From Rhodobacter capsulatus SB 1003 (GTDB lineage: Bacteria > Pseudomonadota > Alphaproteobacteria > Rhodobacterales > Rhodobacteraceae), in the NCBI RefSeq assembly GCF_000021865.1, contig NC_014034.1, forward strand, positions 2,700,001 through 2,732,000: 32,000 nt of DNA, in the 5' to 3' direction. The translations under genes and the position numbers were made by a program. Below are positions 6,070-24,030 of this stretch, piece after piece. The notes beneath the pieces are model-generated. The model had not been told where the DNA came from, searched no databases, and was given only the letters and a program-made list of their open reading frames with translations. How positions within the stretch are numbered: the first letter of the stretch is position 1; each line of letters begins with the position of its first letter.

Positions 6070-6335
6070 CCGCCCGGGGGCCGCATCCCGCCCCCTTCGT
6101 CCTGAATATAGAAGAGTTGCAACCAAAACCTTGATGCAGCCCCAGATTGTGCAGGACAAGGCCGATTCTGTCCGGCTTTGGCCTGTCTTTCCGCCCCCTG
6201 TGTTTCCGCAGTTTCTTAAAAAATCCTTGCCGCAACCGGGGGCGGAGCGCAGAATTTTTCGCGGTGCACCCGGCGCCCCCGGTCTGGCGGGTCCCGGGGC
6301 GCGGCAGCGCGGGCCGACCCCGCGCGGGAGGGCGG

Positions 6336-9300
6336 ATGACACGGGAAATCGACCTCTCGGCCCTGACATCCGATCAGGGCTTCGTCCTGCGCGACAGCGT
6401 GACAGGAGACGGGTTCGGCTGCTGCGTCGCCTCGGCCGGGGATCTCAACGGCGACGGCCATGACGATCTGATGATCGGGGCGATCGGCGACGACCGCGGC
6501 GGGGCAGAGACCGGCGCGGTCTGGGTGATTTTCGGCAGTGCCGGGGGCGCGGCGGGGCCGATCGATCTGGACGCGCTGACCCCGGCGCAGGGGGTGGTGA
6601 TCCGCGGCCCCGAGGCCGAGGCACGGTTCGGCGCCAGCCTGGCCGCGGCGGGCGACGTGAACGGCGACGGGATCGACGATATCGTGATCGGGGCGCCGCG
6701 CAGCGATGCCGGGGCCACGGATGGCGGCGCGGCCTGCGTGGTCTTCGGCGCGCCCGATATCGGCGCCGGGGGTCCGGTTGATCTGGCCGAAATCCCGGCC
6801 AGCCGGGCGCTGCGGATCAGCGGCGGCGGCGAGGCCGATCTGGCGGGCAGCAGCGTCGCCGCGGCGGGGGATCTCGACGGCGACGGTCTGGCCGATCTGC
6901 TGATCGGCGTGCCCCGCGCCGACGCGGGCGGCACCGACAGCGGCGCGGTCTGGCTGATCCGCGGCAGCGCCGAGCTGTCGCGGCTGGGCCAGATCGCACT
7001 GACGGCGCTGCCCGCGGGGCTGGGCCAGGCGATCATCGGCCCCGCGGATTGGGATCTGCTCGGGCTCGCGGTATCGCAGGCCGGAGATCTGAACGGCGAC
7101 GGGCTGGGAGATCTTATCCTTGCCGCGCCCGGCCGCGATGTCGCGGGGGCGGGCGCGACGGGCGAGGATGCCGGGACGGCCTGGGTGATCTTTGGCAGCG
7201 CCGATCCCGACCGCGGCCCGATCGACCTGTCGGCGCTGACGCCCGGGACCGGCTTTGCCCTGACCGGCCCCGGCGATGGCGCCTTGGCGGGCTGGTCGGT
7301 GGCGGCGCTCGGCGACATCAACGGCGACGGCATCGACGACATCGCGATCGGTGCCCCCTATGCGCAGGGCACCGCCCCCTGGAGCGGCGGCGCCTGGGTG
7401 GTTTTCGGGCGCGACACCGGCGCCGGGGCGGCGCCTTTCGGCACGCTCGATCTGGCGGCGCTCGACCCGAGCGAGGGCTTTGCGATCACCGGCGCGGGAT
7501 CGAATGACGCCCTGGGCTGGGCGGTCTCGGCGGCGGGCGACGTGAACGGCGACGGGCTCGGCGATCTGGTTCTGGGCGCCCCCGGGCGCGACGGCGGGAC
7601 CGGCGCCGCCTGGGTGATCTTCGGGCGCAACGTGGCGGCGGGGGCGACGCCCTTCGGCACGCTTGACCTTGCGGATCTGGACGGGCTTGACGGGCTGGCG
7701 CTGATCGGCTGGGCGGGGGCCTCGGCCGGGATCTCGGTCGCGGCGGCGGGCGATCTGAACGGCGACGGGCTTGGGGATCTGCTGCTGGGCGCCCCGGGCG
7801 CGCAGGGCGATCCGACGGCGGCGGGGGCGGCGGTGGTGCTTTATGGCGGCAGTTTCGCCAGTCGGCTCTCGGGCAGCATCGGCAATGACACGCTCTCGGG
7901 CAGCACCGGCGACGATGCCGTGCTGGGCTTTGCGGGCAATGACCTGCTTTACGGCGCGGCGGGGCTTGACGCGCTGCTGGGCGCGGCGGGCGATGACACG
8001 CTGGACGGCGGCGCGGGCGACGACACCCTGCGCGGCGGCGCGGGCGATGACACCTATGTCGTCGACAGCGCGACCGACACGGTCTGCGAATTCTGCACCC
8101 CCGAGGGCACCGAGGATGCGGGCGGCGCCGATACGGTTCTGGCCCGGGTCTCCTATGATCTGACGCGTTGCGCGGGGGCCTGCTACATCGAGACGCTGAT
8201 CCTGATCGGCACGGGCGCGCTTTCGGCCACCGGCAATGCGCTGGGCAACCGGCTGATCGGCAACGGCGCGGCCAATCTGCTGCGCGGTCTGGAGGGCGCC
8301 GACCTGCTCGACGGCAGCGACGGCGATGACCGGCTGGAGGGCGGGGACGGCAACGACCGGCTGCAGGGCGGCGCCGGGGCGGATGTGCTGCTGGGGGGCG
8401 CGGGCAATGATGTCTACACCGTCGAGAGCGACGCCGATCAGGTGCTTGAGACCCTCTCCGAGACCGACCTGCGCGATGCGGGCGGCATCGACACCGTGCT
8501 GACCTCGGTCAGCTACAGTCTGGCGGCGCCGGGCCGCGCCTTTGTCGAGCGGCTGGTGCTGACCGGCACCGCGGCGATCAACGCCACCGGCAATGGGCTC
8601 GACAACACGCTGACCGGCAACGGCGGGGCGAACCGGCTCAGCGGCGGCGCCGGGTCGGATGTGATGATCGGCGGCGCGGGCAACGACATCTATTTCGTCG
8701 AGCGCGTCACCGACCGCGTGGTCGAGACGATCTCCGAATCCGATCTGCGCGATGCGGGCGGCATCGATACGGTGATGACCTCGGTCAGCTATGGCCTGAC
8801 GGGGGCGACCCGGGCCTTTGTCGAGCGGCTGGTGCTGACCGGCACCGCGGCGATCAATGCCACCGGCAATGCGCTGGACAACTGGCTGACCGGCAATGGC
8901 GCGGCGAACCGGCTGGATGGCGGCGCGGGAAAGGATCTGCTGCTGGGGGGCGCGGGCAACGACACCTATATCGTCGAGAATGCCGCCGACCGCGTCGTCG
9001 AGACGATCTCCGAGACCGACCTGCGCGATGCGGGCGGCATCGACACGGTGATGACCTCGGTCAGCTACAGCCTGACGGGGGCGGCGCCCCGCGCCTTTGT
9101 CGAGCGGCTGGTGCTGACCGGAACCGCGGCGATCAACGGCACCGGCAACGGGCTGGCGAACCAGATCTCGGGCAATGCGGGGGCGAACCGGATCTCGGGC
9201 GGGCTTGGCCTCGACACGCTCAGCGGCGGCGGCGGGGCGGACAGCTTCGTCTTCGACACCGCACCCGCGCCGGACAATCTGGACCGCATCCTGGATTTCA

Positions 9301-9551
9301 ACCCGCTGGACGACACGCTCCGGTTCGAGGACGCGGTCTTCGCGGCGCTGGTCCCGGGGCGGGTGGCAAGCGGCGCCTTCGTGATCAACACCACGGGTCT
9401 GGCGCAAGACGCCGACGACCGGCTGATCTATGAAAGCGACACCGGGCGGCTCTTTTATGATCCGAACGGCACGGCCGCGGGCGGGCGGGTTCTGGTGGCG
9501 ATCCTCGCCCCGGATCTGGCCCTGACCCCGGCCGATATCCTGATCTACTGA
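6336..9551 (+). CDS. Large FG-GAP (integrin-alpha-like) beta-propeller / RTX Ca-binding repeat protein, probable type I secretion substrate or adhesin
   Basis: ATG at 6336 preceded by GGGAGG. No N-terminal signal peptide. Seven blades each carry GD(L/V/I)NGDGxxDLxxGA plus AWV(I/V)FG. GGxGxD nonapeptides follow (GGAGDDTLRGGAGDDTY...), then four ~92-120-aa modules. The C-terminal tail (DxLxFxxxxF ... GRLFYDPNGTAAGG ... LTPADILIY) resembles T1SS C-terminal target domains. Confidence 0.88.
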   Translation: MTREIDLSALTSDQGFVLRDSVTGDGFGCCVASAGDLNGDGHDDLMIGAIGDDRGGAETGAVWVIFGSAGGAAGPIDLDALTPAQGVVIRGPEAEARFGASLAAAGDVNGDGIDDIVIGAPRSDAGATDGGAACVVFGAPDIGAGGPVDLAEIPASRALRISGGGEADLAGSSVAAAGDLDGDGLADLLIGVPRADAGGTDSGAVWLIRGSAELSRLGQIALTALPAGLGQAIIGPADWDLLGLAVSQAGDLNGDGLGDLILAAPGRDVAGAGATGEDAGTAWVIFGSADPDRGPIDLSALTPGTGFALTGPGDGALAGWSVAALGDINGDGIDDIAIGAPYAQGTAPWSGGAWVVFGRDTGAGAAPFGTLDLAALDPSEGFAITGAGSNDALGWAVSAAGDVNGDGLGDLVLGAPGRDGGTGAAWVIFGRNVAAGATPFGTLDLADLDGLDGLALIGWAGASAGISVAAAGDLNGDGLGDLLLGAPGAQGDPTAAGAAVVLYGGSFASRLSGSIGNDTLSGSTGDDAVLGFAGNDLLYGAAGLDALLGAAGDDTLDGGAGDDTLRGGAGDDTYVVDSATDTVCEFCTPEGTEDAGGADTVLARVSYDLTRCAGACYIETLILIGTGALSATGNALGNRLIGNGAANLLRGLEGADLLDGSDGDDRLEGGDGNDRLQGGAGADVLLGGAGNDVYTVESDADQVLETLSETDLRDAGGIDTVLTSVSYSLAAPGRAFVERLVLTGTAAINATGNGLDNTLTGNGGANRLSGGAGSDVMIGGAGNDIYFVERVTDRVVETISESDLRDAGGIDTVMTSVSYGLTGATRAFVERLVLTGTAAINATGNALDNWLTGNGAANRLDGGAGKDLLLGGAGNDTYIVENAADRVVETISETDLRDAGGIDTVMTSVSYSLTGAAPRAFVERLVLTGTAAINGTGNGLANQISGNAGANRISGGLGLDTLSGGGGADSFVFDTAPAPDNLDRILDFNPLDDTLRFEDAVFAALVPGRVASGAFVINTTGLAQDADDRLIYESDTGRLFYDPNGTAAGGRVLVAILAPDLALTPADILIY
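8415..9245 (+). repeat. Three tandem in-frame ~276-bp (92-aa) modules within the RTX protein, plus a diverged 360-bp copy at 8055-8414
   Basis: Module starts (TAC/TAT codons for Y in YTVES, YFVER, YIVEN) are at 8415, 8691 and 8967. The conserved block is ETxSExDLRDAGGIDTVxTSVSYxL...AFVERLVLTGTAAINxTGNxL. Confidence 0.9.
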
Positions 9552-16068: not shown

Positions 16069-16302
16069 GGAAAGAGGCCACGCTTCCCCGCCCCGGTCAA
16101 TGGGGAATGGGGGGCGGATGCGGCGCTTGGCGCGCAAGACACAGGCCATTGCCCGAATTTTGGGCGGGACCAAGCGGCGGCTTGATCGACGGGCCCGATG
16201 CGGCTAGCCTTTGACCACCCAAGAAGGTGCCAAAGGCCCCGGGGGGCGGCTGACAGGGGAAATCCCGCGGCGGCAACGAGAGCAGTCAAGGACGAGGCAG
16301 GC

Positions 16303-16587
16303 ATGGAAGAGATGGAGAGCGGCCTTTGGCAGGCGCTTGAGCGCAGCGCGGCCTTTTACGAGGGCGGCGCGGCTTTCGACCCGATCCCTCAGGAACGCAT
16401 CAACCCGGTCGATTTGCGGCGCAAGATGGGGCTGACCCAGGCGCAGATGGCGCCGATGATGGGCATGAGCCTGTCGGGCTATCGCAAATGGGAACAGGGC
16501 CAGCGCGCGATCAGCGGCCCGGCCGCGGTGCTCTTGCGGGTGATCGAAACGGCCCCCGAAGCGGTGAAACAGGCGCTGGCGTCGTAA
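16303..16587 (+). CDS. Small XRE-family HTH protein, MqsA/HigA/NadS-like (antitoxin-like)
   Basis: 94 aa. ATG at 16303 behind GAGG. The C-terminal part DLRRKMGLTQAQMAPMMGMSLSGYRKWEQGQRAISGPAAVLLRVIETAPEAV matches the COG2944-type HTH pattern (...WEQGxRxPSGPAxxLL...). It is divergent from the amidohydrolase operon. Confidence 0.8.
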   Translation: MEEMESGLWQALERSAAFYEGGAAFDPIPQERINPVDLRRKMGLTQAQMAPMMGMSLSGYRKWEQGQRAISGPAAVLLRVIETAPEAVKQALAS

Positions 16588-16606
16588 GAAAATTGCCCCG
16601 AAAGGG

Positions 16607-16819
16607 TCGGGCGGGCCAGGAAAAGCATCGCTTTTCCCCGCCCGTTGGCACGACGGCGGCGGCATGACCGCATCCGCAAGCATGAACAGAGGGCAGCGCC
16701 CTGCCCCGGCGGGCGAGAAGCGCCCGCCATGGGCGGGGCGGGCGCTGCCCGAGTGCCTTGGGGCACTCGGGGGTCATGGGACCACTGTTTCGCAAGGCCT
16801 CGGCGATGGCCTCGGCCAA
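16607..16819. repeat. ~210-nt structured intergenic element, copy A (possible 3'UTR element or ncRNA)
   Basis: Collinear with 23090-23299 in the same orientation. The core 16706-16784 matches 23187-23265 at about 73 of 79 positions by eye. Hairpins at 16609-16643, 16708-16728 and 16748-16771. Confidence 0.8.
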
Positions 16820-16860
16820 TCGGGGTGGGCTTCCCGGTTGCGACCGGAAAGCCCCGGCTG

Positions 16861-18162
16861 TCATTTCCCGCTGGTGGTCGCCATCGGGTTGTTCGGATGC
16901 CCGGTCCAGTTCAGATAGTCGCCGACCGGCTTGGCCGTGCGCAGGTCCAGCTCGCCCTCGGAGAGCTCCCGCATGGTGATGCACTTCGTCGGGCAGACCT
17001 CGACACAGAGATTGCAGGCGACACATTCCTCCTCTTTCACCGTCACCGTGCGATCCGCCGCCATCGCGATCGCCTGATGCGACGTGTCCTCGCAGACGAT
17101 GTGGCAGCGGCCGCATTTGATGCAATCGTCCTGCGCAATGCTGGCCTTGGTGGTGTAGTTCAGGTTCAGATATTGCCAGTCGGTCACCTTCGGCACGGCG
17201 CGGCCGACGATCTCGCGCGTCTCGGTCAGGCCCTTGCGGTCCATGTAGTCCGACAGGCCCGAGATCATCTCCTCGACGATCTTGAACCCATAGGTCATCA
17301 CCGCGGTGCAGACCTGCACGTTATGCGCCCCAAGCGCCATGAACTCGGCCGCATCGCGCCAGGTGGTGACGCCGCCGATGCCGGAAATCGGCAGACCGCG
17401 CGTGGCCGGGTTGCGGGCGATTTCCGCCACCATGTTCAGTGCGATGGGTTTCACCGCCGGACCGCAATAGCCGCCATGGGTGCCAAAGCCGTCAATCGTC
17501 GGCTGCGGCGCGAACAGATCCAGATCGACCGAGGTGATCGAATTGATCGTGTTGATCAGGCTGACCGCATCCGCGCCGCCGCGTTTCGCCGCCTCGGCCG
17601 GTTTGCGGATGTCCGAGATGTTGGGCGTCAGCTTCACGATGCAGGGCATGCGCGAATGTTGCTTCACCCAGCGCGTCACCATCTCCACATAGTCGGGCAC
17701 CTGCCCCACCGCCGCGCCCATGCCGCGTTCGGCCATGCCATGCGGGCAGCCGAAGTTCAGCTCCACCCCGTCGGCCTCGGTTTCCTCGACCCGGGCCAGG
17801 ATCGATTTCCAGCTGTCCTCGTCGCAGGGCACCATCAGCGACACGACCAAGGCGCGGTCCGGGTAATCGCGCTTGACCGATTTGATCTCGCGCAGGTTCA
17901 CCTCCAAAGGCCGGTCGGTGATCAGCTCGATGTTGTTGAGCCCCAAAAGCGTGCCATCGGGCCCGTGAATCGCGCCATAGCGCGGGCCCGAGACGTTCAC
18001 CACCGGCGGGCCGTCAAGGCCGAGCGTCTTCCAGACCACACCGCCCCAACCGGCCTCAAAGGCGCGGCGGACGTTCACCTCCTTGTCGGTGGGCGGCGCC
18101 GAGGCCAGCCAGAACGGGTTCGGGGATTTGATGCCAAGGAATGTCGAAGTCAGGTTCGCCAT
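16861..18162 (-). CDS. preA: NAD-dependent dihydropyrimidine dehydrogenase subunit PreA (DHOD-like domain plus 2x[4Fe-4S])
   Basis: MANLTSTFLGIKSPNPFWLASAPP...GWGGVVWKTLG is collinear with E. coli YeiA/PreA. C-terminal ferredoxin motifs CIKCGRCHIVC and CVACNLCVEVCP. The start is 1 nt after the preT stop. Confidence 0.93.
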   Translation of the reverse strand: MANLTSTFLGIKSPNPFWLASAPPTDKEVNVRRAFEAGWGGVVWKTLGLDGPPVVNVSGPRYGAIHGPDGTLLGLNNIELITDRPLEVNLREIKSVKRDYPDRALVVSLMVPCDEDSWKSILARVEETEADGVELNFGCPHGMAERGMGAAVGQVPDYVEMVTRWVKQHSRMPCIVKLTPNISDIRKPAEAAKRGGADAVSLINTINSITSVDLDLFAPQPTIDGFGTHGGYCGPAVKPIALNMVAEIARNPATRGLPISGIGGVTTWRDAAEFMALGAHNVQVCTAVMTYGFKIVEEMISGLSDYMDRKGLTETREIVGRAVPKVTDWQYLNLNYTTKASIAQDDCIKCGRCHIVCEDTSHQAIAMAADRTVTVKEEECVACNLCVEVCPTKCITMRELSEGELDLRTAKPVGDYLNWTGHPNNPMATTSGK

Positions 18163-18163
18163 C

Positions 18164-19495
18164 TCAGGCCCCCATCAGAAAAGCGTGGATGTCTTCGGCC
18201 GCATCGCGGCCCTGCGCGACGGCGGTCACCGTCAGATCTTCGCCGCCTGTGGCGCAATCGCCGCCCGCCCAGACATGCGCCATCCCGGTGCGCCCCTGCG
18301 CGTCGATCTCGATCTTGCCGCCGGTGATCGTCAGCCCCTCGGGCACCGGCCCAAGCGTCTGGCCGATCGCGGTGAAGATCTGGTCGGCCTTGATGCGCAA
18401 GGTGTCGTCCAGCTGCACCAGCTTGCCGCCCTGGGTCTCGGTGCGGGCGAATTCGACCTCATAGCCCTGATCGTCCTTGCGGATCGCCACGGGCGCCGCA
18501 TTCGGCACGATCCGCACGCCGTTCTTTTGCGCATGCTCCTGTTCATGCGCCGAGGCGGGCATCTCGGCTTGCGAACGGCGATAGACGATGCTGGCCGTCT
18601 CCGCGCCCAGAAGTTTCGCCTGCACCGCCGCATCGACCGCGGTCATGCCGCCGCCGATCACCACGACGCGCCGCCCCACCGGCACCGTCGCCAGATCCCC
18701 GGCCTGACGCAGATGCGCGATGAACTCGGTCGCGGGGGTGGCATGTTCGGCGCCGGGAATGGTCAGCGCATTCACGCCCGCCAGCCCCATGCCCAGAAAC
18801 ACCGCGTCATGCTCGGCCAGCAGATCCGCCACCGAACCGTTGCGGCCGAGTTTCCAGTTTTCCAGCACCGCGATGCCGCCGATCTGCAAAAGCCAGGCCA
18901 CTTCCCTGGCCGCAAAGCCGCCCGGCGCCTTGTAGGCGGCAATGCCATATTCATTCAGCCCGCCCGGTTTCAGCCGCGCGTCATAAACGGTGACCTCATG
19001 GCCCAGCATCGCCAGCCGATGCGCGCAGGCCAGACCCGCAGGCCCCGCCCCCACCACGGCGACAGACTTTTCCGTGCGCGGCGCGCGCGTGAAGGGATGC
19101 ACGCCCGCGGCCTGCAGCCGGTCGGTGGCAAAGCGCTGCAGCGCGCCGATCTCGACCGGCATGCCCTCGGCGGCCTCGCGCACGCAGGCGCCCTCGCACA
19201 GGGTTTCGGTCGGGCAGACCCGGGCGCACATGCCGCCCATGATATTCTGCGACAGGATCGTCCTTGCCGCGGCCTCCGGCGTGCCGGTCAGGATCTGCCG
19301 GATGAACAGCGGCACGTCGATGTCGGACGGGCAGGCCGTGGTGCAGGGCGCCTCGGCGCAGAAATAGCAGCGCGCGGCGGCCACCTGCGCCTGATGCGCC
19401 GTCAAAGGCGGCGCCACATCGGCAAAGGCCGTGCAATACCCCTCGGGCGGAAGACGCCCGGGGTGCACCCCGGGTCGAAACTGGCTTGTGGTCAC
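18164..19495 (-). CDS. preT: Dihydropyrimidine dehydrogenase subunit PreT (GltD-like FAD/NAD(P) oxidoreductase with Fe-S)
   Basis: N-terminal Fe-S cysteines (CYFCAEAPCTTACP; CARVCPTETLCEGAC) and dinucleotide folds VAVVGAGPAGLACA and VVVIGGGMTAVD. I place the start at the GTG at 19495, 5 nt after AGGGAGG. The extension to 19681 in the ORF track is unlikely. Confidence 0.9.
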   Translation of the reverse strand: MTTSQFRPGVHPGRLPPEGYCTAFADVAPPLTAHQAQVAAARCYFCAEAPCTTACPSDIDVPLFIRQILTGTPEAAARTILSQNIMGGMCARVCPTETLCEGACVREAAEGMPVEIGALQRFATDRLQAAGVHPFTRAPRTEKSVAVVGAGPAGLACAHRLAMLGHEVTVYDARLKPGGLNEYGIAAYKAPGGFAAREVAWLLQIGGIAVLENWKLGRNGSVADLLAEHDAVFLGMGLAGVNALTIPGAEHATPATEFIAHLRQAGDLATVPVGRRVVVIGGGMTAVDAAVQAKLLGAETASIVYRRSQAEMPASAHEQEHAQKNGVRIVPNAAPVAIRKDDQGYEVEFARTETQGGKLVQLDDTLRIKADQIFTAIGQTLGPVPEGLTITGGKIEIDAQGRTGMAHVWAGGDCATGGEDLTVTAVAQGRDAAEDIHAFLMGA

Positions 19496-19681
19496 TGTGA
19501 CCTCCCTGGCTTTGTTATTGCCGCAAAGGCTGCCACGATCCGAAATTTTATCAATAGGTAAAATACTGAGGCGCAGGGATTGGCGCTTCATGGCCGGGCA
19601 TCTGCCCAAGGAATGGGCTGACGCAGGGGAAATTGCGGAAAGAGATTCGGGACGAGGGCGCAAAACGGCGGCGATGACCAC

Positions 19682-19714
19682 GGATTCGGCAGGGATTCGG
19701 CAGGGATTCGGCGC
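19682..19714. repeat. 3 x 11-bp tandem repeat (GGATTCGGCAG)
   Basis: Units at 19682, 19693 and 19704 (the last ends GC). It lies in the 835-bp spacer between preT and pucB. Confidence 0.85.
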
Positions 19715-19917
19715 GGCTCGGGCCCAGAATCACGCCCGGGCCTGCGACAATCACGTCAACGAAGCGAAGTGGGAAGCCGTCAGAGCGGTTTCAAGTGCTT
19801 CCGGCGGATAAATTCGGCGCGACAATTCGACCTGAAAATTCCGGTTGCCTGCGACAGGCCGTCCGGGCGCGCGCGCCGCCGCCATCGCCCGATCTGCGAC
19901 AGGCTAACGCAGTTTAA

Positions 19918-19935
19918 TGTACATCCCGCATGACA
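19918..19935. promoter_or_regulatory. Distal CrtJ/PpsR palindrome (TGT-N12-ACA)
   Basis: TGTACATCCCGCATGACA, located 241 bp upstream of the proximal palindrome. Confidence 0.75.
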
Positions 19936-20158
19936 GTTTGACCCGAAGCCCGGTTCTGGTCACGCCGCAAGCCGCCCGCCGCGCGGGGGCCGCAAGGCGC
20001 AAACCCCCTTTGCAGCATGGCTCTTGCGCCCTGTCGCACCCCCCGCCGCAGGCGCCGCGCCGCCCGCGCCACCGGCCCCGGAATCGCCCAAAGATGCGTC
20101 TGGAACACCTGTTTTCACTGGGATTTTGCGCCCCCGGGGGTGGCCGAATTTGCCGCAG

Positions 20159-20176
20159 TGTAAGCCCGACTTTACA
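20159..20176. promoter_or_regulatory. Proximal CrtJ/PpsR palindrome (TGT-N12-ACA) abutting the puc -35
   Basis: TGTAAGCCCGACTTTACA, immediately 5' of the TTGATC -35 candidate. Confidence 0.8.
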
Positions 20177-20177
20177 C

Positions 20178-20206
20178 TTGATCGCCGACACTTGGGCTCC
20201 CATAGT
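20178..20206 (+). promoter_or_regulatory. Candidate puc promoter
   Basis: TTGATC (20178-20183), a 17-nt spacer, then CATAGT (20201-20206). This predicts a leader of roughly 115-120 nt before pucB. Confidence 0.55.
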
Positions 20207-20329
20207 GCGTCTCACGAGGTCGGATCACAGACGGTCCGGCAGCGGGGGGGCGCTGAGACGGGGCTCGAACTTAACCGAGAGAGCTTCATCAACGTTCCCA
20301 ATGATCCCAGTTTTGGAGGATTCGGGACA

Positions 20330-20479
20330 ATGACTGACGATAAAGCTGGGCCGAGCGGCCTGTCGCTGAAAGAAGCTGAAGAAATCCACAGCTACCTGAT
20401 CGATGGCACCCGTGTGTTCGGGGCGATGGCGCTTGTTGCGCACATCCTCTCGGCCATCGCCACGCCGTGGCTCGGGTAA
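20330..20479 (+). CDS. pucB: Light-harvesting complex 2 (B800-850) beta polypeptide
   Basis: [49 protein letters not shown] is recognised as the R. capsulatus LH2 beta chain, with conserved His in AHIL. RBS GGAGGA at 20315-20320. Confidence 0.97.
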
Positions 20480-20499
20480 TCGGGTAGAGGAGAAATACA

Positions 20500-20682
20500 A
20501 TGAACAACGCCAAAATCTGGACCGTCGTCAAGCCCTCGACCGGTATCCCGCTGATCCTCGGCGCCGTTGCGGTCGCCGCTCTGATCGTGCACGCCGGCCT
20601 GCTGACCAACACGACCTGGTTCGCGAACTACTGGAACGGCAACCCGATGGCGACCGTCGTCGCTGTTGCGCCGGCTCAGTAA
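20500..20682 (+). CDS. pucA: Light-harvesting complex 2 (B800-850) alpha polypeptide
   Basis: [48 protein letters not shown]... is recognised as the LH2 alpha chain (His in IVHAGL). RBS GAGGAGA upstream. Confidence 0.97.
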
Positions 20683-20695
20683 TCTGCTGACCTTT

Positions 20696-20723
20696 GGGCC
20701 CACCGGCACCCGTCGGTGGGCCC
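20696..20723 (+). terminator. Stem-loop after pucA (partial terminator or stabiliser of the pucBA transcript)
   Basis: GGGCCCACCG-gcacccgt-CGGTGGGCCC is a perfect 10-bp GC stem, 14 nt after the pucA stop and before pucC. Confidence 0.7.
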
Positions 20724-20778
20724 ATTCCCTCCGGGGCTGAGCCCCTCGCACTTTCTCTCTCCGACGGGCGGCTGGACT

Positions 20779-22167
20779 ATGGGCTACCGTGCTTTTGCTC
20801 TGAAGAACCTGGCGCGGCACGCTCCGAAGTACTTGCCATTCGCCGACGTGGCCAGTGAAGAGGTTCCGCTCTCGCGGTTGCTGCGACTGTCGCTCTTTCA
20901 GATCACCGTCGGGATGACCTTGACCCTGCTCGCGGGCACCCTCAACCGGGTGATGATCGTCGAGTTGGCGGTTCCGGCCTCGCTCGTCTCCGTGATGCTG
21001 GCGATGCCGATGCTGTTCGCGCCCTTCCGCACGCTGATCGGCTTCAAGTCCGACACGCACAAGTCGGCTCTGGGGCTGCGTCGCGCGCCCTGGATCTGGA
21101 AGGGAACGATCTATCAATTCGGCGGTTTCGCCATCATGCCCTTCGCGCTTCTGGTGCTGTCGGGCTTCGGGGAATCCGTGGATGCGCCGCGCTGGATCGG
21201 AATGAGCGCGGCTGCTCTTGCCTTCCTCCTCGTGGGGGCCGGGGTGCATATCGTCCAGACCGCGGGTCTGGCGCTGGCAACCGACCTCGTCGCGGAAGAA
21301 GACCAACCGAAGGTTGTCGGCCTCATGTATGTGATGCTGCTCTTCGGCATGGTGATCAGCGCGCTCACCTACGGGGCGTTGCTGGCGGACTACACGCCCG
21401 GGCGCCTGATCCAGGTGATCCAGGGCACGGCGTTGATGAGTGTCGTGTTGAACATGGCTGCGATGTGGAAGCAGGAAGCCGTCAGCCGGGAACGTGCCCG
21501 GCAGATGGAGACCGCCCAGCACCCGACCTTCCAGGAGGCCTTCGGCCTGCTGATGGGCCGTCCGGGGATGCTGGCGCTGCTGACCGTGATCGCGCTGGGA
21601 ACGTTCGGCTTCGGTATGGCCGATGTGCTTTTGGAACCCTATGGCGGTCAGGCGCTGCACCTGACGGTCGGGGAGACGACGAAACTGACCGCGCTCTTTG
21701 CGCTGGGGACGCTTGCCGGGTTCGGCACTGCGTCCCGTGTGCTGGGGAACGGGGCAAGGCCGATGCCGCTGGCGGTGCTGGGTGCACTGATCGGGGTTCC
21801 CGGGTTTGTCGCCATCATTCTGTCCTCGCTGATCAGCCAGGGTGGTATCTGGTTGTTCCTTGTGGGCACCTTTGCTGTCGGGCTTGGCATCGGTCTTTTC
21901 GGCCATGCGACGCTGACGGCGACGATGCGGACCGCGCCCGCCGATCGGATCGGGCTGGCGCTGGGCGCATGGGGGGCGGTGCAGGCGACGGCCGCGGGCG
22001 TGGGGGTCGCGCTTGCCGGGGTGGTTCGTGACGGTTTGGTTGCCCTGCCGGGGACTTTCGGGTCCGGTGTGGCGGGGCCTTATAATACGGTGTTCGCCAT
22101 CGAGGCGGTGATTTTGATCGTGGCCATCGCCTTCGCGGTTCCGCTTGTGCGGCGGGGAGGCCGATGA
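20779..22167 (+). CDS. pucC: PucC, MFS-like LH2 assembly protein (LhaA/PucC/BCD family)
   Basis: 462 aa, about 12 transmembrane segments, directly downstream of pucBA. ATG at 20779 (MGYRAFALKNL...). The start at 20716 in the ORF track lies inside the pucA hairpin. Confidence 0.92.
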   Translation: MGYRAFALKNLARHAPKYLPFADVASEEVPLSRLLRLSLFQITVGMTLTLLAGTLNRVMIVELAVPASLVSVMLAMPMLFAPFRTLIGFKSDTHKSALGLRRAPWIWKGTIYQFGGFAIMPFALLVLSGFGESVDAPRWIGMSAAALAFLLVGAGVHIVQTAGLALATDLVAEEDQPKVVGLMYVMLLFGMVISALTYGALLADYTPGRLIQVIQGTALMSVVLNMAAMWKQEAVSRERARQMETAQHPTFQEAFGLLMGRPGMLALLTVIALGTFGFGMADVLLEPYGGQALHLTVGETTKLTALFALGTLAGFGTASRVLGNGARPMPLAVLGALIGVPGFVAIILSSLISQGGIWLFLVGTFAVGLGIGLFGHATLTATMRTAPADRIGLALGAWGAVQATAAGVGVALAGVVRDGLVALPGTFGSGVAGPYNTVFAIEAVILIVAIAFAVPLVRRGGR

Positions 22168-22229
22168 TCCGGAGCCCGGCGGGACACCAGGACGTGACTG
22201 AAGAATGCCCTTGAACCCGAGGAGGACGC

Positions 22230-22928
22230 ATGACGACGGTGATCACACGGCTTTATGCCGATGAAGAAACGGCTTGCGACATCGCAAGACAACTGAAAAG
22301 TGAAGGTATTCCGAAACGCGCTCTGAAGGTCGTCGTCGCCGACGGCAAGAAGGGCGCTGCCTTGGCCGAAGCCCTCAAGTCCGCCGGCGTGCATCCCAGC
22401 GCGGCTGCGGGCTATGCCGAACGTGTCGCCGGCGGCGCTGCCGCGCTCGTGGCGAAAGTCAACTACAAGCCGCTCGGCGCGGCGAAACTCGTGCGCGCCA
22501 TCACTGCTCGCGCAGCGGTGGTCGCGGTCGAGAACGCAACCGAAGAGTTCACCTGTGAGGACGCATCTGAAATGACTGACAACATCATGAAAGACCACCG
22601 GCACATCTTCCTGCCGCAACCCGTCAAGGCCGACGAAAAGCCCGGCGCCTTCTCGGAGCGCTTTGGCTGGAAACTTCTGCTCGACACCCCGCGCAAGAAG
22701 AACGTCTACGAAGGCACCAAGTTCATGTCGCAAGACTTCTGGCCGACGCCCTTGGTGAAAACCACCGCGCCGAAGGTCAAGCTGATCCCGGCCGACGCTC
22801 CGCCGCAATCGGCGAAGTTCTGGAAGGCTCCGCTCCTGAAAGACACGCCGCGTCAATCGAACGTGATCCCGGGCGACTTCCTGCCCTTCTCGAACACCTT
22901 CGGCCTGGCGACCATTCAGCGTCGCTGA
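22230..22928 (+). CDS. pucD: Continuous pucD-pucE reading frame (232 codons)
   Basis: Strong [11 protein letters not shown] before the ATG at 22230. There is no in-frame stop up to TGA at 22926-22928. The first 114 codons correspond to PucD and the last 118 codons to PucE. Confidence 0.8.
   Translation: MTTVITRLYADEETACDIARQLKSEGIPKRALKVVVADGKKGAALAEALKSAGVHPSAAAGYAERVAGGAAALVAKVNYKPLGAAKLVRAITARAAVVAVENATEEFTCEDASEMTDNIMKDHRHIFLPQPVKADEKPGAFSERFGWKLLLDTPRKKNVYEGTKFMSQDFWPTPLVKTTAPKVKLIPADAPPQSAKFWKAPLLKDTPRQSNVIPGDFLPFSNTFGLATIQRR
22572..22928 (+). CDS. pucE: PucE (LH2 gamma polypeptide, about 14 kDa), a possible internal start within the pucD-pucE frame
   Basis: The in-frame ATG at 22572 is preceded by GAGGA 10 nt upstream and gives a 118-aa product (MTDNIMKDHRHIFLPQPVKADEK...), the size I recall for R. 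capsulatus PucE. Confidence 0.5.
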   Translation: MTDNIMKDHRHIFLPQPVKADEKPGAFSERFGWKLLLDTPRKKNVYEGTKFMSQDFWPTPLVKTTAPKVKLIPADAPPQSAKFWKAPLLKDTPRQSNVIPGDFLPFSNTFGLATIQRR

Positions 22929-22974
22929 TCACTGACAAGGGGCGGCACTGACCGCCCCTGCACTCCTCGGGTTT

Positions 22975-23030
22975 GCGCCCGTCTGTCCGCCCTTCCCCGG
23001 AAGGTCCGAACAGGCGGGCGCCTTTTATTT
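22975..23030 (+). terminator. Rho-independent terminator of the puc operon
   Basis: A long imperfect GC hairpin (GCGCCCGTCTGTCCGCCCTTCC-cc-GGAAGGTCCGAACAGGCGGGCGC) followed by CTTTTATTT. A smaller hairpin, GGGGCGG-cactga-CCGCCCC, lies at 22939-22958. Confidence 0.75.
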
Positions 23031-23089
23031 CGGCCCCCCGTCTTGGCCCCCCGTCTTGGCCCCCCCTGCCCTGCCCTGCTGCCTTGGCC

Positions 23090-23299
23090 TCGGGCGGAGA
23101 AGAAAACGCATCGCGTTTTCCCGCCCGTCGCAAGCCGGTCGACACGGGACCGCATCCATCAAGCACAACAAAGGGCGGCGCCCGTCCCGGCGGGCGAGAA
23201 GCGCCCGCCGGGGGCGGGGCGGGCGCTGCCCGAGGGCCTTTGGGCCCTCGGGGGTCATCGGACCAATGATCCGCCGGGCCAAGGCGATGGCCTTGGCCA
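23090..23299. repeat. ~210-nt structured intergenic element, copy B (possible 3'UTR element or ncRNA)
   Basis: Collinear with 16607-16819. Hairpins at 23092-23126, 23189-23209 and 23229-23252. It starts 9 nt beyond the cysA stop when read on the minus strand. Confidence 0.8.
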
Positions 23300-23307
23300 G
23301 ACCGAGG

Positions 23308-24030
23308 TCAAGCGGTGATGAAATCGCGCACGAAACTGCTGGCCGGGCGGGCGCGGATGTCGTTCGGGCGGCCGATCTGCTCGATCCGGCCCATCGACAT
23401 CACCACCACCATGTCGGCCAGCTCCATCGCCTCTTCCTGATCATGGGTCACGAAGACCGTGGTCAGGCCGGTGGCGTCGTGAATGTCGCGCAGCCCCTGG
23501 CGCAGCTCCTTGCGGACCTTGGCATCCAGCGCGCCGAAGGGCTCGTCCAGAAGCAGCATCCGCGGCTCGATCGCCAGCGCCCGCGCCAGCGCCACCCGCT
23601 GCCGTTGCCCGCCCGAAAGCTGGCTGGGATAGCGCGATCCGATGTCGGGCAGCTGGATCAGCTCCAGAAGCCGCGCCACCCGCCGGGCGATTTCCAGCTT
23701 CGGCGGCCGCTCGGCCCGCGGCCGGGCGCGCAGCCCGTAGGCGATGTTTTCAAACACCGTCATGTGCCGGAACAAAGCATAGCTTTGAAACACGAAGCCC
23801 GCGCGGCGATCCTGCACCCGCAGGTTGGTGGCGTCCTGGCCGTCAAACAGCACCCGCCCCGAGGTCGGGAATTCAAGCCCGCCCAGAATCCGCAGAAGCG
23901 TCGTCTTGCCCGAGCCCGAGGGGCCCAGAAGCGCCACCAGCGCCCCCGAGGGAATGGCGAGCGACACCGGATGCAGCGCCGCCGTCGTGCCGAAGAGCTT
24001 CGAGATCTCTTGAATGTCGATATCCATCAT
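23308..24030 (-). CDS. cysA: Sulfate/thiosulfate ABC transporter ATP-binding protein, short form without the C-terminal regulatory domain
   Basis: [14 protein letters not shown]...[20 protein letters not shown]...[19 protein letters not shown]...[15 protein letters not shown]...[12 protein letters not shown] is collinear with E. coli CysA. It ends at ...[13 protein letters not shown], equivalent to EPATRFVLEFMG in E. coli, which is where the TOBE-like domain would begin. Confidence 0.88.

Follow-up and report, generated by a model that had tools for sequence, protein, structure and literature searches.

Within a 32,000-nucleotide (nt) stretch of Rhodobacter capsulatus SB 1003 DNA (NC_014034.1, positions 2,700,001 to 2,732,000; hereafter the window, whose own numbering is used throughout), the spacers that follow preA and cysA each hold one copy of a GC-rich structured element, copy A (16607-16819) and copy B (23090-23299). 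The two copies belong to a family of the Rhodobacterales that multiplies and turns over at the DNA level, as seen in its many copies, its tandem arrays and the replacement and inversion of a copy within one and the same spacer. Its copies are non-coding, numerous, intergenic, placed in both orientations and stably structured, which is what is expected of extragenic interspersed repeats. We therefore consider it probable that the family is a non-coding, non-autonomous interspersed mosaic repeat with turnover of its DNA, similar in kind to the repeated palindromes of extragenic DNA known as REP sequences, the bacterial interspersed mosaic elements (BIMEs), the enterobacterial repetitive intergenic consensus (ERIC) and the Rhizobium-specific intergenic mosaic elements (RIMEs). 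The family is real and well supported, and no description of it was found in the open literature on Rhodobacter and roseobacter repeats or on the motif itself; it is thus apparently undescribed, while its most likely nature is a familiar one.

Extent, anatomy and distribution of the unit

The window is R. capsulatus DNA, and the sequence CP198954.1 is 99.99% identical to it across 21 kb. As the initial annotation had proposed, copies A and B are collinear and lie in the same orientation, with a mean column identity of 82% (MAFFT) and a gap-free pair of 119 nt at 87% identity, recovered as repeat family D8 in a repeat search of the window. The 79-nt core (16706-16784 in copy A, 23187-23265 in copy B), estimated by eye to differ at about six positions, differs at exactly six. 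The limits of copy A, a whole composite unit of ~215 nt, were set by aligning it to copy B and to a third copy from R. capsulatus, and those of copy B, also a whole composite unit, by alignment and nhmmer; the matches to the family profile run from 16598 to 16828 and from 23079 to 23310. The third copy (L038) was found in strain SP108 at a different locus; over its whole ~215 nt it shares 84% identity with copy A and 80% with copy B. It presents its + strand downstream of a + strand gene, and it lies between one open reading frame (ORF) and another, beginning MTYVVTDNCI, which may encode a ferredoxin-like protein.

The core of the unit, of ~90 nt, consists of a long GC-rich imperfect palindrome (P1), which surrounds a small hairpin, and of a variable hairpin (P3) after it. 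In P1, GGGCAGCGCCCG-N-CC... pairs with ...GG-N-CGGGCGCTGCCC, the inner hairpin reads GGGYGGGCG-AGAA-GCGCCCGCCC with a bulge of ~5 nt on its 3' side, and P3 is a hairpin of free sequence that has GCCC in common with the end of P1. The composite form of ~215 nt is composed of this core together with a 5' hairpin (M1), a variable linker of ~40 nt, a small hairpin (M5) and a 3' hairpin (M6). M1 has an outer stem CGGGCGG/CCGCCCG and a variable inner stem, and M6 presents the near-invariant loop GGCGATGGCC on variable stems. In a long form, the 5' and 3' halves of the core are retained, but a branched insert of ~85 nt at the stem tip replaces the AGAA loop and P3 is extended.

In copy A, M1 (16608-16644) carries the inner stem GGAAAAGC/GCTTTTCC and the loop ATC within the outer stem CGGGCGG/CCGCCCG. 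The core (16691-16750), common to 68 copies from other Rhodobacterales (alignment A2), has the P1 arms GGGCAGCGCCC and GGGCGCTGCCC around the hairpin GGCGGGCG-AGAAG-CGCCCGCC (16708-16728). P3 (16748-16771), whose first bases overlap the end of P1, reads CCCGAGTGCC-TTGG-GGCACTCGGG, and M6 (16796-16817) reads GGCCTCGG-CGATGG-CCTCGGCC with two internal mismatches. The same parts are found in copy B, namely M1 (23091-23127) with the inner stem GAAAACGC/GCGTTTTC, the core (23173-23231) with its inner hairpin at 23189-23209 and a G.T pair in P1 where copy A has A-T, P3 (23229-23252) as CCCGAGGGCC-TTTG-GGCCCTCGGG, and M6 (23277-23298) as GGCCAAGG-CGATGG-CCTTGGCC with a perfect 8-bp stem.

The search for further copies found them across the Rhodobacterales. 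With copy A as the query of a distant BLAST search against a plasmid collection, the central ~68 nt matched unannotated intergenic spots in Phaeobacter and Leisingera plasmids, exposing the conserved module AGGGCAGCGCCC...GAAGCGCCC...GGGCGCTGCCCG; all matches in this collection are located in the intergenic DNA of roseobacter plasmids, and the phage collection gave no match. Scanning one genome per bacterial species for the exact pattern GAAGCGCCC-N(8-24)-GGGCGCTGCCC retrieved at least 120 loci, the large majority from Rhodobacterales (Paracoccaceae and Roseobacteraceae) and often several per genome. Among the matches listed, the core is present in dozens of genera, and about 15 matches come from other bacteria and look like chance. 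The composite form is present in the examined genomes of Rhodobacter, Gemmobacter, Tabrizicola and Pseudorhodobacter (other copies being Gemmobacter L010:198-396, Tabrizicola L087, and Pseudorhodobacter L120, L079). A metagenome scan with a pattern of 35 bases that singles out cores of the R. capsulatus type provided, among the matches listed, 0.73 Mb of DNA, in which nhmmer found 204 composite copies, 157 of them full length; the ends of these 157 always fall at the same profile positions, delimiting a sharp unit of ~215 nt. The sample Ga0268299 alone contributed at least 18 matches on contigs of 22-400 kb, 13 of which are on contigs longer than 100 kb. Single Pseudosulfitobacter plasmids (80-570 kb) carry three to five copies of the long form, all outside annotated coding sequences.

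The pattern matches at first appeared to fall into two classes, a short palindrome and a small RNA (sRNA) gene with a promoter-like CTTTATGG. Longer alignments show a single family whose members differ by the insert, and the promoter-like idea was therefore dropped. In Roseovarius sp. MMSF_3359, four near-identical long forms (L013, L016, L036 and L039) have ~40 nt of extra conserved flank per side, containing the imperfect direct repeat AAGCAGTNTT(T)CG; these extended flanks possibly represent a larger composite unit or a preferred target.

The element had not been recognised as a named RNA family, and Rfam agrees with this. At the gathering thresholds of Rfam 15, the sole match in the whole window is a tRNA gene (2552-2623, +, 63.9 bits) and 18 related loci gave no match, while permissive scans of both copies revealed no explanatory family, the best being 6C RNA, which scored 23.7 bits where the cut-off is 47 (E = 0.65).

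Base pairing under selection

Both window copies fold far better than shuffled sequence (z = -7.1 for copy A and -5.7 for copy B), and the folds are extremely stable, at -141 to -167 kcal/mol. The preservation of the hairpins by compensatory changes, first noted from these two copies, was confirmed and extended to the 68 core and 64 composite copies aligned. In the core alignment, 92.9% of the cells hold standard pairs, and double-change cells number 85, compared with 22.4 +/- 3.9 in shuffles (none of 500 reaching 85). In the composite alignment, 94.8% of the cells are paired, and there are 153 double-change cells against 54.2 +/- 6.5 in shuffles. When the partner columns are slid in these alignments, pairing falls to 36-48% (36-47% for the core). 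These counts were taken from explicit structures instead of an RNAalifold consensus, which was uninformative on a sequence-only alignment because several registers compete.

The changes are distributed over several stems. Between the window copies, the pair T16754:A16765 in P3 of copy A becomes G23235:C23246 in copy B, as previously read, and the P3 stem varies freely and is fully compensated across the family. The terminal hairpin M1 keeps its ATC loop in copies A and B with the two inner stems given above, also as initially described, and L038 has a third version, GGAAAGGC/GCCTTTCC; in the 64 composite copies this inner stem covaries (AU/CG, AU/GC, GC/CG). The M6 stem shows GC, AU and CG at three positions, and the inner part of P1 shows AU, GC, CG and UA. 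Copies found with the profile, for which the exact pattern was not used, present a compensated outer P1 (GGGC...GCCC to GGCC...GGCC) and inner hairpin. In addition, the segment GGGCGGG (C) covaries, for instance as CCCTCCC/GGGAGGG, both with CCCGCCC (B) and with the inner extension of P1. Since both pairings of C covary, two mutually exclusive folds seem to be maintained.

A small ORF does not account for this conservation. The GC content by codon position is flat in copy A (0.69-0.76), compared with 0.46-0.87 in the flanking genes, and shows some spread in copy B (0.61-0.81) in a pattern that is not gene-like; the small ORF was rejected because of the lack of codon periodicity and the frame-breaking indels of 1-2 nt between copies.

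Folding energy did not indicate which strand is the relevant one. In 67 of 71 copies the fold of the + strand gains 6.4 kcal/mol over that of the minus strand, but the z values against shuffled sequence are equal (-4.66 vs -4.74), so that the gain reflects base composition (G 47%, C 33%) and this strand argument was withdrawn. Orientation showed no association with local GC skew, a rough proxy for the replication strand (34 vs 33 and 14 vs 17).

Genomic setting, arrays and turnover between relatives

Both window copies are flanked by convergent genes. Copy A is located between an HTH_3/MqsA-like gene (+, stop at 16587) and preA (-, TGA at 16861-16863), and copy B between pucD (+, stop at 22928) and cysA (-, TGA at 23308-23310), with distances of 9-45 nt to the minus-strand stop codon (9 nt in the case of cysA). 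PreA was identified through its equivalog at 708 bits, together with CysA, CysW and CysT, and the puc operon through LHC and PUCC Pfam matches. The stop codons on which the initial annotation had relied are where it placed them, but the context does not fix its choice of the minus strand, since both spacers are convergent.

The same annotation read the minus strand of each copy as ending in a GC stem followed by a U-rich run. Both belong to the hairpin, of which they form the 3' arm, and no U tract comes after it. No terminator-like call lies wholly within either copy, the nearest ones being 16611-16597 (-), whose last five bases are inside copy A, and 23004-23019 (+), outside copy B. On the preA side, a private hairpin at 16827-16854 (-; GGGCUUUCCGGUCGCAACCGGGAAGCCC) stands between the preA stop and copy A, outside the repeat, and is absent in two relatives described below (L129 and L130). 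At 16588-16611 (-), abutting the left end of copy A, the consensus scan identified a terminator-like hairpin with a U tract (CCCGACCCUUUCGGG GCAAUUUUCU), which is, judging from its sequence, a candidate 3' end of the preA transcript. On the puc side, a canonical intrinsic terminator of the operon, a stem followed by GCCUUUUAUUU, is located at 22987-23030 (+), upstream of copy B; hence, read-through from puc into copy B is probably low. Between this terminator and copy B, directly before the latter, a 13-nt direct repeat GGCCCCCCGTCTT occurs twice (region 22987-23065).

These observations bear on a further explanation, in which the copies would be ordinary gene-specific terminators grown alike through convergence of GC-rich hairpins. 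Their place directly after stops and their very stable stems fit such a role, but the collinear similarity extends over ~215 nt including loops and linkers, the same core recurs in dozens of genera, the stems lack a following U tract and, before copy B is reached, puc is already provided with a canonical terminator. We regard this explanation as highly improbable, the multi-module homology being effectively its refutation.

Beyond the window, genes were called with a heuristic based on the GC frame that, applied to the window, gave back its known genes. The 127 sites that could be scored comprise 75 in tandem, 42 in convergent and 10 in divergent settings, against a background of 63%, 19% and 18%, respectively (chi-square p = 4.5e-5); thus, convergent spacers are enriched and divergent ones depleted. 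The element end nearest a stop codon, whichever end it is, typically lies 0-30 nt away. In tandem contexts, 39 copies are co-oriented and 36 anti-oriented with no net bias (short cores, 25 co-oriented and 15 anti-oriented; composite blocks, 14 and 21).

Arrays are frequent, as 38 of the 133 composite blocks are head-to-tail arrays of two to eight units with a period of ~240 nt, in which orientation is never mixed. The arrayed units are 85-90% identical and their linkers of ~25 nt are conserved (…CCATTGCAGCGGTGAAGGTGCTTTCGCC…). Two of the arrays contain eight (L193:26-1878) and six (L181:196-1596) composite units. The Paracoccaceae genome OZ219809.1 has at least seven core copies in both orientations within ~5 kb (L113 and L127, ~1.8157-1.8207 Mb), in apparently non-coding DNA where other short repeats are also present. 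Clustering of the 320 ORFs neighbouring copies revealed no recurrent protein family, transposase or recombinase, and no recurrence of a Y1/HUH, RAYT-like or integrase gene. In a single case (L137:610-1830), a transposase gene of the IS5/IS1182 type (DUF772 and DDE_Tnp_1) is located between two three-unit arrays, probably as a secondary insertion of an insertion sequence (IS) into an array.

Turnover is observed in the preA spacer. Two metagenome contigs, L129 and L130, encode a PreA that is 95% identical to that of the window, and between the two of them flanks of 8.3 kb and 6.7 kb align without gaps at 98.5-98.8% identity. Their homology is lost in a stretch that starts 18 nt within preA and reaches the stop codon of the HTH gene, the replaced segment being L129:8285-8517 in one and L130:8285-8564 in the other. 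In L129 the spacer contains the element in the orientation of the window, with a 38-nt deletion in the linker, and in L130 it contains a full element, inverted and 78% identical to the L129 copy, whose P3 stem matches those of copy B and L038, unlike that of copy A. Since the segment extends into preA, the two contigs differ in the final ~6 codons of PreA, and the turnover has rewritten the 3' end of the gene. The preA spacer of Rhodobacter lacus (PreA 86% identical) is without the element. Therefore, the polymorphism expected of a mobile repeat is present in this spacer, with opposite orientations and 78% identity between copies within flanks at 98.7%, and with no clean empty site. In other orthologous pairs with flanks ~90% identical the element is kept, showing that copies can also be inherited stably.

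Copy B, for its part, is located at the end of synteny with relatives, whose homology stops ~100 nt past pucD, at the puc terminator (22987-23030). After pucD, these relatives have a membrane ORF of 92 aa, another ORF of 297 aa and a GapR gene in place of the cysAWT operon. Two metagenome contigs corresponding to window positions 16745-23201 (L005) and 16735-21932 (L006) end inside the window copies, as is typical of assembly breaks at repeats.

The preA spacer also bears on the case for a trans-acting sRNA of ~150-220 nt derived from the 3' untranslated region (UTR) and processed from the minus-strand preA and cysA mRNAs, the reading first proposed for these copies. Both copies begin 9-45 nt past a minus-strand stop, the small hairpin and U tract at 16611-16588 follow copy A on that strand, and the minus-strand loops are C-rich with the weak, sub-threshold resemblance to 6C RNA noted above. 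Nevertheless, in convergent spacers the + strand is equally 3' of a gene, L038 has the + strand downstream of its gene, no net orientation bias exists over ~130 loci, and no U tract follows copy B on the minus strand. A 3'UTR-derived sRNA is expected to keep its strand and position at orthologous loci, but the L130 copy is inverted, which would give preA a complementary and unrelated 3'UTR, and the R. lacus spacer is without the element. Together with the copy number and the arrays, this makes such an sRNA very unlikely.

Some neighbouring features of the window deserve mention. The HTH_3/MqsA-antitoxin-like gene convergent with preA (16198-16587, +) has annotated lengths of 94, 129 or 163 aa. 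CysA (23308-24027, -) is a short form of ~239 aa that covers positions 1-238 of the 362-position CysA equivalog and all of TIGR00968. On the + strand, pucC extends from 20716 to 22167 and pucD from 22230 to 22928. Further away, an ORF of 1134 aa (6147-9551, +) has FG-GAP and hemolysin-type calcium-binding repeats, and contains 276-nt tandem coding repeats (8356-9183) as well as several periodic repeats of 213-216 nt (6417-7854).

Nature of the family and comparison with known repeats

Considered as an interspersed mosaic repeat, the family could be explained as follows. Copies persist where they are least harmful, in short spacers just after stops, chiefly between convergent genes and in either orientation. 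Where the neighbouring gene is transcribed, the element would join its 3'UTR, and its RNA is predicted to fold into four or five very stable stem-loops from either strand. By analogy with what was shown for REP, BIME and ERIC in enterobacteria, these hairpins are probably barriers at RNA 3' ends or insulators; they would hinder exonucleases working 3'-to-5', or serve for pausing, termination or insulation where transcripts converge. In the window, transcription from preA would pass through its private hairpin (16827-16854), then copy A, and then the small hairpin and U tract at 16611-16588. The cysA transcript would enter copy B 9 nt past its stop, and the puc transcripts probably end at their own terminator before it. 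Position and extreme fold stability are what suggest this role at the RNA level. Thus, the initial suggestion of a REP/BIME-like element stands in kind, with multiple extragenic copies, both orientations and turnover between strains, and the effect on mRNA stability or termination that accompanied it is to be read as conjectural.

Several observations must be weighed against this interpretation. Neither terminal inverted repeats nor a target-site duplication nor an empty site was found, the flanks of copies A, B, L038, L129, L130 and L010 showing no target duplication and the left flank no conserved short target motif. Given also the lack of a recurrent transposase, we infer mobility from polymorphism, copy number and arrays, which is less than a demonstration. 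The role in RNA is argued by analogy, and on neither strand is the last stem of the element followed by a U tract. In addition, the non-Watson-Crick pairs of P1 and the inner hairpin, counted on the window + strand, are G.T in 87 cases and A.C in 20, which is weak evidence as regards the strand, and 16 of 20 long forms share the orientation of the gene upstream; these are hints that one strand is preferred. Finally, the core and some loops (GAAGCGCCC and GGCGATGGCC) keep their primary sequence across two bacterial families while the stems covary. Such conservation exceeds what hairpins alone need and points to a putative sequence-specific partner.

These conserved loops and sequences, together with two competing folds that both covary and with arrays running head-to-tail, exceed the needs of a plain hairpin, and on their account two further explanations were retained. 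A broader proposal, to which we give a small share of credence, would see in the family more than selfish DNA, namely an order-wide modular structured element whose invariant loops (the GAAGCGCCC region and GGCGAUGGCC) would be read by a putative conserved protein. In a first version, it would constitute a new mobile-element system using folded single strands, and in a second one, the 3'UTR copies would set the fate of mRNAs and the arrays would encode multi-module RNAs sequestering the protein. The mutually exclusive covarying pairings (the long P1 with the inner hairpin, or the B:C hairpin) would in that case serve as a functional switch.

One of the two retained explanations is a + strand structured RNA module, for instance encoded by a 3'UTR or an array, that would bind a conserved protein through its invariant loops and whose arrays would titrate this protein in the manner of CsrB/RsmZ. 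It would account for the conservation of loops and single-stranded stretches beside covarying stems, for the order-wide core, for the excess of G.T over A.C pairs, for the long forms lying co-oriented and shortly downstream of a gene (the same 16 of 20), and for the joint change of the tip-of-stem insert and the P3 extension in the long form. In contrast, short cores and composite blocks show no net orientation bias, near-identical strains have the element in opposite orientations in the preA spacer, the folding advantage of the + strand is gone after composition control, and no promoter-like site was found in or beside the window copies. Moreover, the density on plasmids and the matches in a single sample (three to five per 80-570 kb and at least 18, respectively) suggest, by extrapolation, dozens of copies or more per genome, which would be unusual for an RNA gene. 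Such a module is in our view unlikely.

The other is a single-stranded DNA hairpin element moved by an HUH or tyrosine enzyme, with hairpins and loops as recognition sites. In a comparable manner, REP/REPIN sequences rely on RAYT, the IS200/IS605-derived PATEs on TnpA and attC sites on the integrase. Hairpins at both ends without terminal inverted repeats or target duplication, stems tolerant of G.T on one strand, conserved loop sequences and head-to-tail arrays, which would be expected if new copies insert beside a site on an existing copy, are all consistent with an element of this type. However, no GTAG or CGTC head, 8-9-bp REP stem or attC core site is visible in the consensus, orientation is unlinked to local GC skew, no conserved short target motif is found at the left flank, and the 320 neighbouring ORFs do not include a recurrent Y1/HUH or integrase gene. 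We judge this possibility slightly less likely still than the RNA module. The interspersed mosaic repeat thus continues to be the interpretation that we favour.

The family differs from several described classes to which it was compared. The REP superfamilies have units of 20-40 nt with a GTAG/CGTC head, an 8-9-bp stem, a 4-5-nt loop and a short tail (PMC3733652). The consensus obtained here from 68 core and 64 composite copies corresponds instead to units of 90-215 nt with a GC stem of 12-18 bp and no GTAG/CGTC head, and the 38 of 38 arrays in a single head-to-tail orientation do not correspond to the alternating organisation of BIMEs, in which linker motifs are conserved as the linkers are here. 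The structure of a MITE (a miniature transposable element with inverted repeats) is not recovered either, as the unit ends (TCGGGCGG... and ...GGCCTCGGCC) are not inverted copies of each other and no target-site duplication was found; P1 can be read as the inverted repeats of the core alone, leaving P3, M1 and M6 outside. Integron attC sites were discarded, since RYYYAAC ... GTTRRRY is absent from the consensus ends by inspection and the array spacers are ~25 nt and conserved. CRISPR arrays were discarded as well, with a unit of ~215 nt, 85-90% identity and conserved linkers in place of identical 24-48-nt repeats with unique spacers.

If our interpretation is correct, Rhodobacter and the roseobacter group, which comprise phototrophs used as models and heterotrophs that are among the most abundant in the sea, own a counterpart of REP, ERIC and RIME. 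The repeat breaks short-read assemblies, marks synteny breakpoints, as copy B does, and inflates lists of "putative sRNAs" in RNA-seq studies. By analogy, it probably shapes the 3' ends and the stability of many mRNAs, including those of cysA and preA beside the puc operon, a subject of photosynthesis research. Its order-wide sequence conservation, covarying stems and arrays offer a tractable system for the spread of repeats and their recognition by proteins.

Among structured RNAs of the same bacterial group, the 3'UTR-derived sRNAs SorX and PcrX of Rhodobacter and Cereibacter and the multi-copy sRNAs CcsR/cuckoo resemble the element in being structured and located 3' of ORFs, and CcsR also in its tandem copies. 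They are single loci with fixed strand and position, in contrast to the flipping orientation and high copy number observed here, and the element is without a CCUCCUCCC-type loop motif and has no Rfam match. The Correia/NEMIS MITEs of Neisseria are similar in that they are short, non-autonomous, transcribed into long hairpins and variable between strains in presence and orientation. They differ in what was not found here, namely unit-bounding inverted repeats, a target duplication and a transposase-bearing parent.

RIME and the BOX elements of Streptococcus pneumoniae occur in non-coding DNA, with copy numbers per genome from tens up to about a hundred or more, and we know of no established function or mobilising enzyme for either of them. 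Both are, like this family, mosaic intergenic repeats of palindromic modules, and RIME is also alphaproteobacterial. They belong to other orders and presumably have other sequences, and the resemblance to RIME is architectural; in BOX, modules are repeated inside one element, while here whole units are arrayed. ERIC, or the intergenic repeat unit (IRU), is an imperfect palindrome of ~127 bp transcribed in operon 3' and intercistronic regions in both orientations, with longer variants arising through inserts at fixed internal sites. These insert variants parallel the short core and the long form with its ~85-nt insert. In contrast, ERIC is found in another host group (Enterobacteriaceae and Vibrio), is not known to form tandem arrays or to have extra flanking hairpin modules, and its sequence is presumably unrelated.

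The closest likeness in kind is to REP and BIME, which in enterobacteria, as ERIC, have roles in mRNA 3'-end protection and termination. REPs are usually species- or genus-specific, whereas the core described here is conserved across a whole order, and their single stem-loop of 20-40 nt contrasts with the three to five distinct hairpins in 90-215 nt of this family, just as the alternating BIMEs contrast with its head-to-tail arrays, which have no RAYT-like neighbour among the 320 ORFs. Nevertheless, they share with it the condition of extragenic, multi-copy, GC-rich imperfect palindromes, located after stops and between convergent genes in either orientation, rare in promoter regions, single or clustered, and breaking assemblies and synteny.

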